Sequence record: OQ992558.1
Origin: Escherichia phage L14
Strand: one strand, 5' to 3'
DNA: 64,000 nucleotides
Shown here: positions 646-21,299 of the stretch, one piece after another
How the letters are laid out: each line of letters opens with the position of its first letter
Numbering within the stretch: position 1 is the stretch's first letter
Notes under the pieces: model-generated
Told to the model about the DNA's origin: nothing
What the model saw: only the letters and a program-made list of their open reading frames with translations
Database searches by the model: none
Program-made: the position numbers and the translations under genes

Positions 646-2739
646 TTATCCTTGAATGAACTTGTAAGGCATGTTTGCAATATCTATGCAAGATGCAATA
701 ATTCCAAGAGATGATTCTACTTTTTGTTTAACATTTGATGAAACAAATGATGCAAAGTCAACTCTGTCTTCTATTTCAATATCACCTGTCATTGCAACTA
801 CTTCACCAGTTTCCATTAGACGGTCACCGTCATAAATTACTGATTCAGTGAGTTCTTCCGTAGTCATAACTTCAGCTTGAATGAGTTTTGTATTATTAGA
901 TGTTGTTCCGTCATTATTAGAAGCATCAGTTATTTTATTAACTTTGACCATCAATCCGCGTGGTAGAATAACTTCAGCTTCTGTTGCTATTCCGAGGCTT
1001 CCTGGATATACAACATTAACTTTATGAGCTCCATCAATTGCCCATCCTATTTGAACTTTAACGTATTCGGGATTTTCTTTATACGCTCTTATTTCGTTTG
1101 AATTAATAGTTATTCCTTCTTCATTTTTATCAACTGTCAATTCATTACGAGCTTCTGGTTCTAAAAGACCAATACCAGCATGTGTAATTCCAAAACGTCC
1201 AAAAATGATAGGAGTTAAAGAAGTAGATACAAAATTTCTGAAATAGAACACTTTATTTTTAACTAGTGCTTCGTATATAGGAGCAGTCATGCTTTGAGCA
1301 CGATAAACTGTAATGCCTTCTGGTATACGGTCACCATTTTCAAAGGCTGAATCTAAATTATTTATCGCAGATTCAATTTCTTTTTCACTCATTACCTCAT
1401 ATCGTTCTGGATTGTAGCGACCTAAAAGAAGATTATTGATGTCAGTATATCCTGAACCACAATACTCTCTGATGCCGCGCTTTTGTGATGGAGTATATTT
1501 AGAACCATCACGAGCAATAGTAATATCAATCATTGGACCTGCACCAATTCCAGAAAAACTATAAATCATTCTTTTGAGGAATTTAGTTTTTGCTGCGTTC
1601 CAGGAATTTTTAGTTATTTCTTCCCAGACTTCATCTGTCTGTCCTTTACGAGTTTTATTATGTTTATCAAGCCAGTTATCTTTATATTCTTCAAATAATT
1701 GATTAACAGCTGCTGCGTATTTCTCTAAACATTTTATTGAAGTAGTTGGTTCATTTTTAATCGCATTAAGAATTACATCTTTAATTTTTTCAGAAACTTC
1801 ATTAACCTCACTTTTTGAAAAGAATTTATAGTCATAATGAAGTTCATCTGCAGTTCCTTCAGCAATAATTTTTGCTGCCTTAGTTTTAGAAGCTAATGAA
1901 TTAATTCCAAGCTTCATTTCTTCTGCTTCGGGAATTAAAGGAGCTGTAGCAGGTTTATTGAAATTAGCTGCGGTAGATTCATACTTCTGGAATAATTCAC
2001 TTTCAAATCTAGAAGATTCTAATGACTGACTTTGTGCAATTGCTCTACGGGAAATTTTAACTTTAACGATTACAGCTTGATCAGAACGTTTATCGTTTTC
2101 TTGCGCAATAGATGCTGCAATTGCCTCATTTTTAGTTACTTGAGCTCCAGTATCTTTATTGATATAAACATCACCGACCTTCGATTCAACTTTAGTAAAG
2201 AGCTCGGTACTAATTTCCGGAACTCCTGGAATGTCTTCTAGTGATACATTTTTGCGATGTATAAGAATATATGCATACTTTTTATCATAATCCCAGAGTT
2301 CCTTAAGAAGGACGTATCTGCCACCTGAACGACTACGGATAAGTCTATCAGCAATAACTTGAATTTGTCGAGCTTGACCAGCGGTTTTAGACTTAAGAAT
2401 ACGAAGCATACAAGCATCAATTTTATACTGACGCATTGTTTGCATTGCAACAGTAAAAACTGAATTGATATAATTAATTGGGCTTGGACCAAGACCTTTT
2501 AATTTAGCAATTGAACCTTTAGCAGTTAATGTAAAAGGAACAATATGCATCATTTTATCGCCCATTTTTAAATCGCGATTAGTATCACCTCCAGATGTAT
2601 AGGTACATAAACGAAAGCCTGGTTGTTCAATTGCATCATCAACATGAACTGAAAAAATTTGCGGTATTTTCTTCTTTGGATTTAAGTTTGTAATCGGAAG
2701 AGTAGTATCTTCGTCAAATAATTCTGTAATAAGTTCCAT
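646..2739 (-). CDS. alt: Alt ADP-ribosyltransferase (packaged internal head protein)
   Basis: 698-aa ORF recognised as T4 Alt; start moved to second ATG (MELITELF) which has GAGG at 5-nt spacing. Confidence 0.85.
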   Translation of the reverse strand: MELITELFDEDTTLPITNLNPKKKIPQIFSVHVDDAIEQPGFRLCTYTSGGDTNRDLKMGDKMMHIVPFTLTAKGSIAKLKGLGPSPINYINSVFTVAMQTMRQYKIDACMLRILKSKTAGQARQIQVIADRLIRSRSGGRYVLLKELWDYDKKYAYILIHRKNVSLEDIPGVPEISTELFTKVESKVGDVYINKDTGAQVTKNEAIAASIAQENDKRSDQAVIVKVKISRRAIAQSQSLESSRFESELFQKYESTAANFNKPATAPLIPEAEEMKLGINSLASKTKAAKIIAEGTADELHYDYKFFSKSEVNEVSEKIKDVILNAIKNEPTTSIKCLEKYAAAVNQLFEEYKDNWLDKHNKTRKGQTDEVWEEITKNSWNAAKTKFLKRMIYSFSGIGAGPMIDITIARDGSKYTPSQKRGIREYCGSGYTDINNLLLGRYNPERYEVMSEKEIESAINNLDSAFENGDRIPEGITVYRAQSMTAPIYEALVKNKVFYFRNFVSTSLTPIIFGRFGITHAGIGLLEPEARNELTVDKNEEGITINSNEIRAYKENPEYVKVQIGWAIDGAHKVNVVYPGSLGIATEAEVILPRGLMVKVNKITDASNNDGTTSNNTKLIQAEVMTTEELTESVIYDGDRLMETGEVVAMTGDIEIEDRVDFASFVSSNVKQKVESSLGIIASCIDIANMPYKFIQG

Positions 2740-15673: not shown

Positions 15674-16852
15674 TTAAAAGTATTTTTTAAAACTCATCAT
15701 AACTTTATCATCAACATCATTATCAATCTGTGCAACAAGATAAGATGACAGTTCTACTTCTTGTGGCGCTGATTGAACATTATCAGAATTAAGATATTCA
15801 CGAATCCAAGGATATGGATGTTTAACCGGAGCATCGGTAATTGGGCATGGAAGACCGCACTGTTTCATACGAGATACAGTTAAGTAATCAATAAAGCTCC
15901 ACATGCTATTTGTATTTAATCCAGGAACATCGCCATCTTTAAATAAATGAACTGCCCAATCTTTTTCTTGACGGTTAACTTCCATGAAAATATCAACTGC
16001 TTCTTGTTCACACTCTTGAGCAATTTTAACCCATTGATCGCCATCAGTACCAGATTGAAGTTGACGAATAATATATTGTGTACCTTTAAGATGAAGCTGC
16101 TCATCACGTGCAATGAACTTCATAATCTTGGCATTACCTTCCATGATTTCCATGTTTTTATGGAAGTTAAAGGTACACGCAAAGGATACATAAAAACGAA
16201 TAGCTTCTAATGCATTAATAACGTGCAAACAGAGGTAAAGAGATTTCATTAGCTCACGCTTCCAATATGTCTCATGCTCAATAGCATCTTCAATAACGTC
16301 TTCGTCTGCATTAATTTCTTTTTGGTATTCGATATCAGCTTTAGCGTTTTCCCAATAACGAGTTTTAATCAGAACATCATCATAATAACGTCCAATGGAT
16401 TCAGCACGTTTCATAATAGCTTCATCTAATACAATTTCATCAAATACCTTCGATGGATCAGTATAAAGATTTCGCATGATATGAGTATATGAACGACTGT
16501 GAATAGTTTCACTAAAAGTCCATGTAGCAACCCATGTATCAAGGCTTGGGTCTGAAATTAATGACATAAGTACAGCAGATGGCGCGCGACCCTGAATGCT
16601 ATCTAAAAGTGATTGATACTTCAAGTTGTTAGTAAAAATATTTTGCTGATACTGAGGAAGCTTATTAAACTGTGCAGCATCCATCATCAAGTTTACTTCT
16701 TCAGGACGCCAGAAAAATGATAATTGCTTTTCGGTTAAATCTTCAAAAACTTTATGACGTTGAATATCATAACGCGCAATACCAAGACCTGAACCAAAAA
16801 ACATAGGTTCTTTTAAAACATCAACTGGATTTGTATTAAAAACTGTGCTCAT
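15674..16852 (-). CDS. nrdB: aerobic ribonucleotide reductase small subunit, uninterrupted
   Basis: 392-aa continuous ORF with class I RNR beta features; no intron. Confidence 0.93.
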   Translation of the reverse strand: MSTVFNTNPVDVLKEPMFFGSGLGIARYDIQRHKVFEDLTEKQLSFFWRPEEVNLMMDAAQFNKLPQYQQNIFTNNLKYQSLLDSIQGRAPSAVLMSLISDPSLDTWVATWTFSETIHSRSYTHIMRNLYTDPSKVFDEIVLDEAIMKRAESIGRYYDDVLIKTRYWENAKADIEYQKEINADEDVIEDAIEHETYWKRELMKSLYLCLHVINALEAIRFYVSFACTFNFHKNMEIMEGNAKIMKFIARDEQLHLKGTQYIIRQLQSGTDGDQWVKIAQECEQEAVDIFMEVNRQEKDWAVHLFKDGDVPGLNTNSMWSFIDYLTVSRMKQCGLPCPITDAPVKHPYPWIREYLNSDNVQSAPQEVELSSYLVAQIDNDVDDKVMMSFKKYF

Positions 16853-16903
16853 AAATTTTCCGCTTAGTTAATAGTTGGTGACTCGTCCGTGAGTCAAATT
16901 ATA

Positions 16904-19168
16904 TCATAATTTACAGGATGAACAATCTTCAGCTTTTGGAGTTTCTATTTCATAATCATCAGTACCAGAACCATCGCGTGTATTATGATAATAGAAATTT
17001 TTAATGCCATAATACCATCCGTATAGCATGTCATCAATCATTATTGACATTGGAACCTTTCCTTTTGGAAAAATCTGCGGATCATAATATGTATTCGCTG
17101 AAGCTGATTGACATACCCATTTCAGCATAATAGCTACCTGCGTAAGATAAGGTTTATTACCTTTCTTGGCTAATTTCCATGTATAATCATAGAGGTCTAT
17201 GTTATGCTCAATATTCGGAACAACTTGATTAAATGAACCATCTTTTGATTCTTTAACACTTACCGGTCCGCGTGGAGGCTCGATGCCGTTTGTACTGTTA
17301 GATACCTGACTGGACGATTCACAAGGCATAAGTGCTGATAATGTGCTATTACGGATGCCAAAGAGCTTAAGGTCTTCCCGCAGCGCCGACCAGTCACAAA
17401 CGTATTTTGGAGCTGCGATTTGGTCAATCTTTTTATTGTACCAGTCGATAGGTAATTCGCCTCGAGACCAACGAGTGTCTGAATAATATTCGCAAGGTCC
17501 TTTTTCTTTGGCGAGCTTAATGGATGCTTTAATGAGTCCATACTGTAATCTCTCAAATAATTCATGTGTTAAATCGTTAGCATCTTCATAAGAAGCAAAG
17601 TTACTTGCCAGCCAAGCTGCATAGTTGGTAACACCTACACCAAGGTTACGGCGCTTTTTAGCTTTTTCTGCTTCAGGAACTGGATATCCTTGGTAATCCA
17701 ACAGATTATCAAGAGCACGAACTTGAACTTCTGCCAATTCATTAATTTTATCTTGGTCTTGCCAGTCAAAATTATCTAGTACGAATGCAGAGAGAGTACA
17801 CAATCCAATTTCAGCATCAGGACTATTCACATCATTTGTTGGAATAGCAATTTCACAGCACAAGTTACTCTGACGAATAGGCGCCTTTTCACGAATAAAC
17901 GGAGTATAGTTATTCGTATTATCAATGAACTGCACATAAATCCTTGCGGTTCCTGAACGTTCAGTCATGAGCAATTCAAATAGTTCACGGGCTTTAATAC
18001 GCTTTTTACGAATATTAGGGTCTTTTTCTGCTGCTTCGTATAATTCACGGAAACGGTCTTGGTCTTTAAAATAAGAATAATAAAGCTCGCCACCCATTTC
18101 ATGCGGACTGAACAAAGTAATGTAATCATTCTTTCCGAATCGTTCCATCATCAAATCATTCAGTTGAACACCATAATCCATATGACGAATGCGGTTTTCT
18201 TCTACGCCTTTGTTATTTTTCAAAACAAGAAGATTTTCAACTTCCAAATGCCAAATAGGATAATAAGCAGTAGCAGCGCCGCCACGAATTCCACCCTGTG
18301 AGCATGATTTAACAGCAGTCTGAAAATGTTTCCAAAAAGGAATAACACCAGTATGGCGTACTTCACCCATGCCAATCTTAGAACCTTCAGCACGAATCAT
18401 ACCAACGTTAATACCAATTCCAGCGCGTTTAGAGATATATTCAACAATTGAAGCAGAAGCCTTATTGATAGACTTCAGTGAATCGCCTGCCTCAATAACA
18501 ACACATGAACTAAACTGCCGAGTTGGAGTACGGCAACCAGCCATAATAGGAGTTGGTAATGAAATCTGTCGAGTAGATACCGCTTCATAAAAACGGATAA
18601 CATGTTTTAATCTATCAACAGGTTCATCTTGATGCAATGCCATTCCAATAGTCATAAATGCAAACTGTGGAGTTTCATAAATTTGACCAGTGGTTTTATC
18701 TTTAACTAGATATTTTTCTTTTAATTGCATCGCCCCGGAATAAGTAAATTCCATATCCCGCTCGTGCTTAATTTTTGATTCTAAAAATGTAATTTCTTCT
18801 GCTGAATATTTTGACAATAATTCAGGGTCATATTTACCTTCATTTACACAGTAAGAAATATGGTCAATAAATGAACGTGGTTCATACTGCCCATAAACAT
18901 GCTTACGAAGAGCGAACATTAAACAACGTGCAGCTACATATTGATAATCAGGCTCTTCAACCGAAATAGAATTCGCAGCGGCCTTAATGACAATAGTCTG
19001 AATATCATCAGTTGTCATTCCATCACGGAGATAAGATTTAATATTTTCATATAATTCATAAGGATCTACTGATGTTCCTTCAGCTGCCCAAGATAAAACT
19101 TTAATAATTTTTTGCGGGTCAAAGCTCTGAGAAACACCACTACTTTTGATAACATTAATTAATTGCAT
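16904..19168 (-). CDS. nrdA: aerobic ribonucleotide reductase large subunit
   Basis: 754 aa, recognised as T4 NrdA. Confidence 0.95.
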   Translation of the reverse strand: MQLINVIKSSGVSQSFDPQKIIKVLSWAAEGTSVDPYELYENIKSYLRDGMTTDDIQTIVIKAAANSISVEEPDYQYVAARCLMFALRKHVYGQYEPRSFIDHISYCVNEGKYDPELLSKYSAEEITFLESKIKHERDMEFTYSGAMQLKEKYLVKDKTTGQIYETPQFAFMTIGMALHQDEPVDRLKHVIRFYEAVSTRQISLPTPIMAGCRTPTRQFSSCVVIEAGDSLKSINKASASIVEYISKRAGIGINVGMIRAEGSKIGMGEVRHTGVIPFWKHFQTAVKSCSQGGIRGGAATAYYPIWHLEVENLLVLKNNKGVEENRIRHMDYGVQLNDLMMERFGKNDYITLFSPHEMGGELYYSYFKDQDRFRELYEAAEKDPNIRKKRIKARELFELLMTERSGTARIYVQFIDNTNNYTPFIREKAPIRQSNLCCEIAIPTNDVNSPDAEIGLCTLSAFVLDNFDWQDQDKINELAEVQVRALDNLLDYQGYPVPEAEKAKKRRNLGVGVTNYAAWLASNFASYEDANDLTHELFERLQYGLIKASIKLAKEKGPCEYYSDTRWSRGELPIDWYNKKIDQIAAPKYVCDWSALREDLKLFGIRNSTLSALMPCESSSQVSNSTNGIEPPRGPVSVKESKDGSFNQVVPNIEHNIDLYDYTWKLAKKGNKPYLTQVAIMLKWVCQSASANTYYDPQIFPKGKVPMSIMIDDMLYGWYYGIKNFYYHNTRDGSGTDDYEIETPKAEDCSSCKL

Positions 19169-19725: not shown

Positions 19726-20037
19726 TTACACCGCCATTTTTCCTTTCAAGACGCCGTGGGACTGATAATCTTTGAGAACGAAATCTTTAGGCCTGAGTTT
19801 AAGAATGTATTCCAATTGTTCTTTAGTAGAAAGATAGCGGAATTTATAAGGCAATCCGCCTATTACCAGTTCACAAAGCTCTTTAGGTTCACGACGCAAA
19901 ATTTCTTTACATTGTTCTACGTGATTCATATAGATATGAGTATTACCACCGGAAAATATCAAATCTCCCGGAATAAGATTACACATCTTAGCTACAATAT
20001 GAACTAACGTAGCATATGATGCAATATTAAATGGAAG
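19726..20037 (-). CDS. td: thymidylate synthase, exon 2
   Basis: encodes LPFNIASYATLVHIVAKMC...; the ATG at the ORF start is the last 3 nt of the intron (omega-G). Confidence 0.9.
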   Translation of the reverse strand, partial: LPFNIASYATLVHIVAKMCNLIPGDLIFSGGNTHIYMNHVEQCKEILRREPKELCELVIGGLPYKFRYLSTKEQLEYILKLRPKDFVLKDYQSHGVLKGKMAV

Positions 20038-20357
20038 CATTATGTTCAGATAAGGTCGTTAATCTTACCCCGGAATTATATCCAGCTGCATGTCACCATG
20101 CAGATCAGACTATATCTTCAACTTGTTAAAGCAAGTTGTCTATCGTTTCGAGTCACTTGACCCTACTCCCCAAAGGGATAGTCGTTAGGCATTTATGTAG
20201 AACCAATTCCATTTATCAGATTTTACACGGTAAGTAACTAATCCTGATGAAATTATTAAAGGGTAGTCCTACAATTTAGCACGGGATTGTCTACTAGAGA
20301 GGTCCCCCGTTTAGATAGATTACAAGTATAAGTCACCTTATACCTAGGCCTCAATTA
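20038..20357 (-). ncRNA. group I self-splicing intron in td, about 320 nt, no internal ORF
   Basis: intron ends match my memory of the T4 td intron (5-prime UAAUUGAGGCCU..., 3-prime ...CUGAACAUAAUG); in-frame TAA directly after exon 1; no ORF over 60 aa inside. Confidence 0.85.
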
Positions 20358-20906
20358 ACCCAAGAAAACATCTACACTGCGTTGATACCATTGTAAATCA
20401 AGATAACCATTACGCACATTAAACTGATAGAACATATGACAAGGTGGTAATGCCATATATTTAAGTTCAGCTGGATTCCACGCAGAAACAATTTGACGCC
20501 TATCACTTGGTAGTTTTTTAATACGATCAATAACTTCTATAATTTGGTCTACACCGCCAAAATCGCGCCACTGTTTTCCATAAATTGGGCCAAGTTCACC
20601 ACTATGGTATCCTAAATCTTTTGCCTGATTTTCGTAATTTTCATCCCAAACTGTTTTGCCTTGGATTAACGAATCATGCTGAATTAATCGTAAATCATTG
20701 ACATTTGTGCTTCCTGATAAAAACCAAAGTAGCTCAGCAATGCAAGCTTTCCAGGCGAGCTTCTTAGTTGTTACCGCAGGAAAACCTTTAGTTAAATCCC
20801 AGCGTAATTTAGTACCGAATAAAGCAATTGTTCCTGTGCCTGTTCGGTCATCGGTTTCATAGCCATTTTCAAAAATGTCTTTAATTAAATCTTGGTATTG
20901 TTTCAT
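20358..20906 (-). CDS. td: thymidylate synthase, exon 1
   Basis: 183 aa ending ...VDVFLG, then intron. Confidence 0.9.
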
Positions 20907-20951: not shown

Positions 20952-21299
20952 TCAATACGGTTTAGCATCAAATTTTCTCTCAATTTCAGGTGTGAAATAT
21001 AATTCTTTACCACGTTTGGAAAAGCGACCAATAATATGATAATTATTCTCATCAAACGTGATATTACCAATATCCATAGCTTTCAACCAAATATCGATAT
21101 TTCTATCCAGCTTTATGTCAAAATTCCAATACGGAGAACTATTACCGAAAATACTGCAAGCGGATTCAGTGAAACAACTGCTATAAATCTTGTCTTTAGG
21201 AACTACTAATTGATAGACACCTTTAATAAACTGAGGACCCTGCCACTTTGGCTGTTTCGTGTCTTTTTCTAATAGAATAGGGTAATAATTAAAATTCAT
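20952..21299 (-). CDS. hypothetical protein (115 aa) inserted between frd and td
   Basis: coding-strand ORF MNFNYYPILLEKD...; no motif recognised. Confidence 0.55.
   Translation of the reverse strand: MNFNYYPILLEKDTKQPKWQGPQFIKGVYQLVVPKDKIYSSCFTESACSIFGNSSPYWNFDIKLDRNIDIWLKAMDIGNITFDENNYHIIGRFSKRGKELYFTPEIERKFDAKPY

Follow-up and report, generated by a model that had tools for sequence, protein, structure and literature searches.

Escherichia phage L14 (OQ992558.1) carries a thymidylate synthase gene (td) that is interrupted by a group I intron holding no endonuclease gene, and the questions raised by this locus are whether a homing endonuclease gene (HEG) was lost from the intron or never entered it, and whether the remaining ribozyme can still splice. 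The window analysed here, a stretch of 64,000 nucleotides, belongs to a T4-like phage of the genus Tequatrovirus. Escherichia phage U115 and Shigella phage ESh30 match it at 100% identity over the td region.

An initial annotation, made from the sequence by a model, had proposed that td is split by an intron of about 320 nt of the T4 td type which contains no endonuclease ORF. Each of these points was borne out, the intron boundaries being exact (Table 1). The group I intron model RF00028 matched positions 20367..20086 (minus strand) with 70.3 bits (E 8e-16, model positions 1-253 of 253; gathering score 50 bits) and was the sole Rfam family matched in the whole 64-kb window. Alignment with the 1016-nt td intron of T4 (KJ477684), in which I-TevI occupies intron nt 132-869 in T4 numbering, gave a single 696-nt gap and nine substitutions over 320 positions, so that the assumed homology to the T4 intron holds for 311 of 320 bases. 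The spliced product of 286 amino acids aligns over residues 1-286 with T4 thymidylate synthase (1TIS; E 5e-194) and is colinear with it through the splice junction (...VDVFLG/LPFNIASY...). The first three nucleotides of the intron, TAA (20357..20355), place an in-frame stop after exon 1, and the final six bases of that exon, UUGGGU, form the 5' strand of P1. The longest ORFs inside the intron encode 32-33 amino acids, and a tblastn search with I-TevI returned residues 224-245 only.

Table 1. Features of the td locus in the window and of short td introns in related phages (intron nt are those of the 320-nt intron; a slash marks the deletion join)
Feature	Position	Strand	Remarks
td exon 1	20906..20358	-	183 codons; ATG 20906..20904; C-terminal ...VDVFLG, GGT at 20360..20358; last bases GTTTTCTTGGGT
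td group I intron, IA2-type	20357..20038	-	320 nt; starts TAATTGAGG, ends ...GAACATAATG with terminal G at 20038; RF00028, T4 alignment, helix check, fold
P6a stem	20273..20196	-	intron 85-94 with 153-162; closes shortened L6a loop
Deletion junction ...CCCTTTAATAA/TTTCATCAGG...	20256..20252	-	intron nt ~103-105; 696 nt of HEG+ alleles absent
I-TevI remnant, codons 224-245 (ISSGLVTYRVKSDKWNWFYINA) and stop	20253..20188, stop 20187..20185	-	tblastn
P7, guanosine-binding helix	20183..20108	-	intron 175-179 with 246-250; helix check
td exon 2	20037..19726	-	103 codons and stop; opens CTTCCATTTAATATT; LPFNIASY...KGKMAV*
nrdA	16904..19168	-	gap to nrdB 16853..16903
nrdB	15674..16852	-	
571-nt-deletion allele	L013 (G28), L014 (F1), L015 (e11/2), around 1944..2389		
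215Ecol030PP short td intron	L017 2014..2275		262 nt
Klebsiella phage EI short td intron	L016 1944..2258		315 nt; ribosome-binding-site leader kept

The block missing from the window corresponds to T4 intron nt ~105-800 and so comprises codons 1-223 of I-TevI together with the final ~28 nt of its leader. The gap thus maps to the L6a/ORF block, in agreement with the prediction that the absent part is the I-TevI gene of the P6a loop. In T4, the leader contains the ribosome-binding site of I-TevI, its hairpin and a late promoter/operator. What survives of the gene is ~70 nt of its 3' end, with no start codon upstream, in which all 22 residues are identical to those of I-TevI (tblastn, E 1.9e-9); no second copy of I-TevI was found by tblastn across the whole window. 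The last ~20 nt of the remnant are at the same time P6a/P6/P7 core sequence, and published work has found that the core structure (P6a, P7) uses just the final 20 nt of the I-TevI ORF (PMC3073962), which leaves ~50 nt as pure coding remnant. The remnant differs from T4 at three positions, all of them synonymous, and at each the window has the base of the intact but divergent I-TevI of phages VEc20 and TuIa; the changes therefore fit an origin while the ORF was still under selection. The intact GIY-YIG ORF of a mobile intron/HEG composite is missing, with codons 224-245 alone remaining. Since the last 22 codons and the stop persist, the I-TevI gene was evidently lost from the td intron rather than never acquired. 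The initial annotation had allowed for both ("loss of, or never invaded by"); its first option stands, and the second falls on this in-frame remnant.

The allele in which the deletion occurred can also be traced. The 1016-nt td intron of phage VEc20 (MN022785) encodes an intact, divergent I-TevI (218/245 amino acids identical to T4 I-TevI) and shares seven of the nine differences that separate the window from T4 (A13, G14, G54, A94, A806, A809, C824). An AGT serine codon at positions -21 to -19 of exon 1 is common to both phages. Because the diagnostic SNPs flanking the deletion match the window, sequence comparison identifies the parent as a td intron of the TuIa/VEc20 type and not T4's own allele. 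Removal in silico of 696 nt after position 103, 104 or 105 of the VEc20 intron yields the window intron with six mismatches, and these three equivalent cut placements imply a 2-nt (AA) microhomology at the join, the partners being ...TTTAATAA/ATAC... and ...TTTTGAA/ATTTC.... The HEG alleles of VEc20 and phage TuIa (AY262157) are 99.9% identical; alleles of this type occur at 95% identity or above in ~33 phage records, and ~161 records have the T4-type allele. Of the members of the AY262148-158 series examined for an HEG-less td intron, LZ2, RB3, T6 and AY262155 have full-length introns, and TuIa carries the HEG.

The AGT codon (20376..20378 in the window, minus strand) replaces the serine codon TCA and lies directly 3' of the I-TevI cleavage motif CAACG (-27 to -23). 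It is present in the window clade and in the HEG+ VEc20/TuIa-type allele, and absent from T4-type alleles. The switch may have to do with the cleavage site that the variant endonuclease prefers.

To assess the ribozyme itself, the helices of the td intron were mapped onto the window and 20 related alleles. All 70 pairs checked in the window are standard (P1, P2, P3, P4, P5, P6, P6a, P7, P7.1, P7.2, P8, P9). In P1 the exon sequence UUGGGU pairs with intron nt 9-14, and the splice-site U(-1)·G9 is kept in 21 of 21 alleles; the UUGGGU substrate and the G78-C865 pair described previously (PMC2729099), C865 being nt 169 of the window intron, agree with the assignment of P1 and P6. Those substitutions relative to T4 that fall in helices keep pairing, both in P1 (-6/14, U-A to U·G; -5/13, U·G to U-A) and in P6a (94/153, G·U to A-U). 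The remaining differences are in junctions and include A54G in J4/5 and G240A in J8/7, of which G54 also occurs in VEc20, whose allele is intact, and A240 agrees with the Rfam consensus. P7 encloses P7.1, P7.2, the 3' strand of P3, P8 and J8/7, and the two helices typical of subgroup IA2, P7.1 and P7.2, are present as hairpins at intron nt 180-191 and 195-208.

Folding for an intact P1-P9 core, a check suggested by the initial annotation, gave a consistent picture. The unconstrained minimum free energy (MFE) structure (dG -90.7 kcal/mol, z -2.6) recovered P2, P3, P4, P5, P6, P7.1, P7.2, P8, P9 and a P6a which the I-TevI remnant extends by 7 bp (105-111 with 146-152). P7 is missing from this structure because it is pseudoknotted with P3, and P1 is missing as well. 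The window core scores higher against RF00028 (70.3 bits) than the T4-like 320-nt allele of phage MLP2 (66.9 bits), which was used as the T4-like comparator; the introns of T4 and G28, with their large inserts, are below the gathering threshold. As the introns of the set are so similar, mostly >97%, few helix pairs vary, and the evidence from the fold and the covariance model is indirect.

The exons point in the same direction. Between the window and MLP2 they differ by 26 synonymous and two nonsynonymous codon changes, and between the window and phage Shinka by 28 and five, respectively. Judged from these codon changes, purifying selection acts on the td exons in the short-intron carriers, which implies that td is expressed and hence that splicing is required. 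As td is non-essential in thyA+ hosts, selection for splicing could be weak. Laboratory td introns with a shortened or replaced P6a/L6a self-splice both in vitro and in vivo (PMC2729099, PMC8565351), and by analogy with them the natural deletion sits in a region known to be dispensable. With its core helices intact, its changes pair-preserving and its exons evolving mostly by synonymous substitution, the td intron is most likely a working but immobile ribozyme, and guanosine-dependent self-splicing is what we infer from the integrity of the core together with the activity of the laboratory deletion constructs.

A search with a 131-nt probe spanning the deletion join found the identical contiguous junction in at least 16 phage records. 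These carriers were U115, ESh30, HP3 (four records), Pinarejo, SYGD1, Elenatom, Shinka, C2-3, 101112UKE3-1, PYps55T, MLP2, UPWr_E2 and 235Ecol030PP, isolated in Spain, Germany, Chile, Poland, China and the USA on E. coli, Shigella and Yersinia. One HP3 record (NC_041919) is filed as Rosemountvirus, and its genome is Tequatrovirus-like. The exact junction had no match in IMG/VR. Two JGI metagenome matches to a 21-nt junction motif (L022 554..578; L023 780..808) were rejected as unrelated A/T-rich coincidences with 25-29 nt of similarity. A94, A806 and A809 adjoin the junction in every carrier fetched, which indicates a single deletion event. The carriers fall into two intron haplotypes, the first (window, HP3, SYGD1, Elenatom) being VEc20-like throughout and the second (MLP2, Shinka and the rest) T4-like at positions 13, 14, 54 and 824, with position 936 varying within the group. 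The pattern of the second haplotype points to later recombination with T4-type introns. Exon 2 shows 0/312 differences among nearly all carriers and exon 1 up to 40/549 nt.

The gene upstream of td differs among the carriers: the window clade and MLP2 have a 115-aa ORF there, the Shinka group a DUF4858 ORF of 68 aa. The former (20952..21299, minus strand, between frd and td) belongs to PHROG 1928 (function unassigned), has no Pfam match and no nuclease domain, and is optional: T4, G28, F1 and e11/2 are without it, and frd and td overlap there. It is replaced by the 68-aa ORF in Shinka, C2-3, PYps55T and UPWr_E2.

The explanation we regard as very probable is that one 696-nt deletion of I-TevI in a TuIa/VEc20-type intron left a core that would still splice in an intron that would be immobile and immune to cleavage. 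The history began with a 1016-nt td intron of this type carrying the diverged I-TevI allele in loop L6a. A single illegitimate deletion between two A/T-rich sites sharing AA then took the leader sequence and codons 1-223, sparing the final 22 codons and the ribozyme core. The pre-mRNA would adopt the P1-P9 fold and undergo the usual guanosine-initiated splicing in two transesterification steps, so that ...FLG is joined to LPF... and full-length thymidylate synthase is made. Because I-TevI is gone, no autonomous homing is expected, and inheritance would be vertical or by ordinary recombination; work on td homing uses the ORF-deleted tdΔ1-3 construct as its standard negative control (PMC1865063). 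The flanking ORFs examined held no free-standing endonuclease beside td able to mobilise the intron in trans, as collaborative homing would need: the neighbours of td belong to PHROG 1928, DUF5496 and DUF4326, and the gap between nrdA and nrdB, the mobE/hef position, contains no HEG. The allele would also be protected from the I-TevI of co-infecting phages, since the intron still splits the recognition site, and disruption of the homing site by intron insertion is known to make an allele immune to its own endonuclease (PMC3984707).

The part of the genome around this nrdA-nrdB gap is unusually free of HEGs, and nrdB has no intron. Phage U115, despite its 100% identical td region, has a 243-aa putative HEG between nrdA and nrdB.

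An intron that is compact and without an ORF could also represent the ancestral state before any endonuclease was present, and ORF-less group I introns preceding HEG acquisition have been discussed in connection with collaborative homing (PMC3984707). Such a history is scarcely credible here and is effectively refuted by the coding remnant, as the ~50 nt outside the 20-nt core overlap are codons 224-239 of I-TevI in frame with the retained stop, the three synonymous differences carry the bases of the intact VEc20 allele, and the left junction lies inside the I-TevI leader, the rest of which is missing. A dead ribozyme, with td a pseudogene and dTMP supplied by the host thyA, is improbable to a somewhat lesser degree. 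The dispensability of td on thyA+ hosts and two substitutions in catalytic junctions (J4/5 and J8/7) would suit it, but both exons are intact (286 codons with no frameshift), substitutions among the carriers are mostly synonymous, every carrier has intact core helices in which the changes preserve pairing, and the two junction bases are, respectively, also that of an HEG+ allele with an intact I-TevI ORF (G54) and that of the family consensus (J8/7). That the short intron is an artefact of assembly or of the laboratory has nothing specific in its favour, is the least probable reading of all and is excluded by independent replication, the same junction, with linked SNP variation, being present in 16 records that come from different countries and from laboratories independent of one another.

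A further proposal refines the deletion history rather than opposing it, namely that the HEG-less intron is a selectively favoured, 'vaccinated' allele, a stable end state spread by recombination in Tequatrovirus. Such an allele might block cleavage of td by I-TevI or I-TuIaI, avoid the cost of the endonuclease to splicing and expression, and stall the homing cycle. One deletion is now found in at least two intron haplotypes, on exon-1 backgrounds as divergent as noted above and beside either of two optional genes that precede td, its carriers come from six countries and three host genera, and td splicing is known to be impaired by untimely I-TevI translation (PMC2988022). However, near-full-length I-TevI occurs in ~187 records against 16 with the deletion, making HEG+ alleles ~10 times commoner, and in T-even phages, which are highly recombinogenic, neutral recombination would yield the mosaic pattern equally well. 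We consider the favoured spread unlikely on balance and retain the single deletion with a functional core as the preferred explanation.

The window allele has counterparts among its relatives, in whose td introns I-TevI was deleted independently at least three more times. In G28, F1, e11/2 and FL18 a 571-nt internal deletion between GGCATTTTAA repeats leaves a 55-aa stub, and 215Ecol030PP and Klebsiella phage EI have short introns of other lengths (Table 1); from the span of its match, 236Ecol005PP may hold another short allele. HEG loss is thus recurrent in td introns. The right-hand end point CATTTT(A/G)AAATTTC is common to two of the deletions. Exon 1 of td in 215Ecol030PP (L017 1324..2016) is annotated as 693 nt and not 552 nt, and its 5' half is highly divergent (187/549 mismatches when compared with the window without gaps), pointing to an indel or to mosaicism at the 5' end. 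Within Tequatrovirus, td alleles that lack the intron are common (e.g., SH7, PE37 and teqhad), so that with the HEG+ and HEG-deleted alleles all three states of the homing cycle coexist within one genus.

Three previously described systems bear comparison with the window intron. It shares with the T4 td intron the insertion point after the Gly183 codon (GGT), the bases outside the deletion at 311 of 320 positions, the P1-P9 architecture with P7.1 and P7.2, the TAA at nt 1-3 and the terminal G, and differs from it in the absence of 696 nt, in its TuIa/VEc20-type origin and in its expected immobility. With the TuIa/VEc20-type intron it has in common all diagnostic SNPs at the deletion flanks and the AGT codon of exon 1; that parent has 1016 nt and an intact GIY-YIG ORF, and the window intron is its Δ696 derivative. 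The laboratory td introns (tdΔ1-3, shortened-P6a and theophylline-aptamer forms) likewise lack L6a and the ORF and keep the core; self-splicing of such ORF-deleted introns takes place both in vitro and in vivo, and tdΔ1-3 shows no homing (PMC2729099, PMC8565351, PMC1865063). The window allele, by contrast, is natural, has other end points, and retains 70 nt of the ORF 3' end where ~20 nt are needed.

A natural parallel is offered by the nrdB intron of T4 with its truncated I-TevIII, which, according to PMC1865063 citing Eddy and Gold (1991), is a deletion derivative that is splicing-competent and non-mobile. In both, a T-even phage intron has undergone a natural deletion within its endonuclease gene, but the nrdB case concerns another gene and an enzyme of the H-N-H family and keeps part of the ORF, nearly all of which is gone in the window. 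No publication on the Δ696 td allele or on its TuIa-type origin was found. Several HEGs of T-even introns were reportedly found by Sandegren and Sjöberg in 2004 to carry inactivating deletions. Both the kind of element and the mechanism of HEG loss seen in the td intron were already known and fully anticipated, and the Δ696 intron demonstrates no new mechanism and no new kind of element.

The finding has a practical use for annotation, as many GenBank records split td into two genes and add spurious small ORFs in the intron. The records of 101112UKE3-1, UPWr_E2 and Elenatom, for example, give td as two separate CDS and annotate three 'hypothetical proteins' of 99-102 nt within the 320-nt intron (1947..2270 of L005, L008 and L012, respectively).

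The cycle proposed by Goddard and Burt comprises the birth, degeneration and loss of intron/HEG pairs (as summarised in PMC5009752). The td alleles follow it without contradiction, with three states in one genus and recurrent HEG deletions. The bearing on the intron/endonuclease cycle that had been claimed for this locus is therefore real: with an I-TevI remnant, an HEG+ parent of the VEc20/TuIa type and intronless td alleles all in evidence, the td intron of the window is a textbook example of the degenerate-HEG stage. As the deletion is traceable to a specific parent allele and junction, it could seed studies of HEG turnover at the population level.
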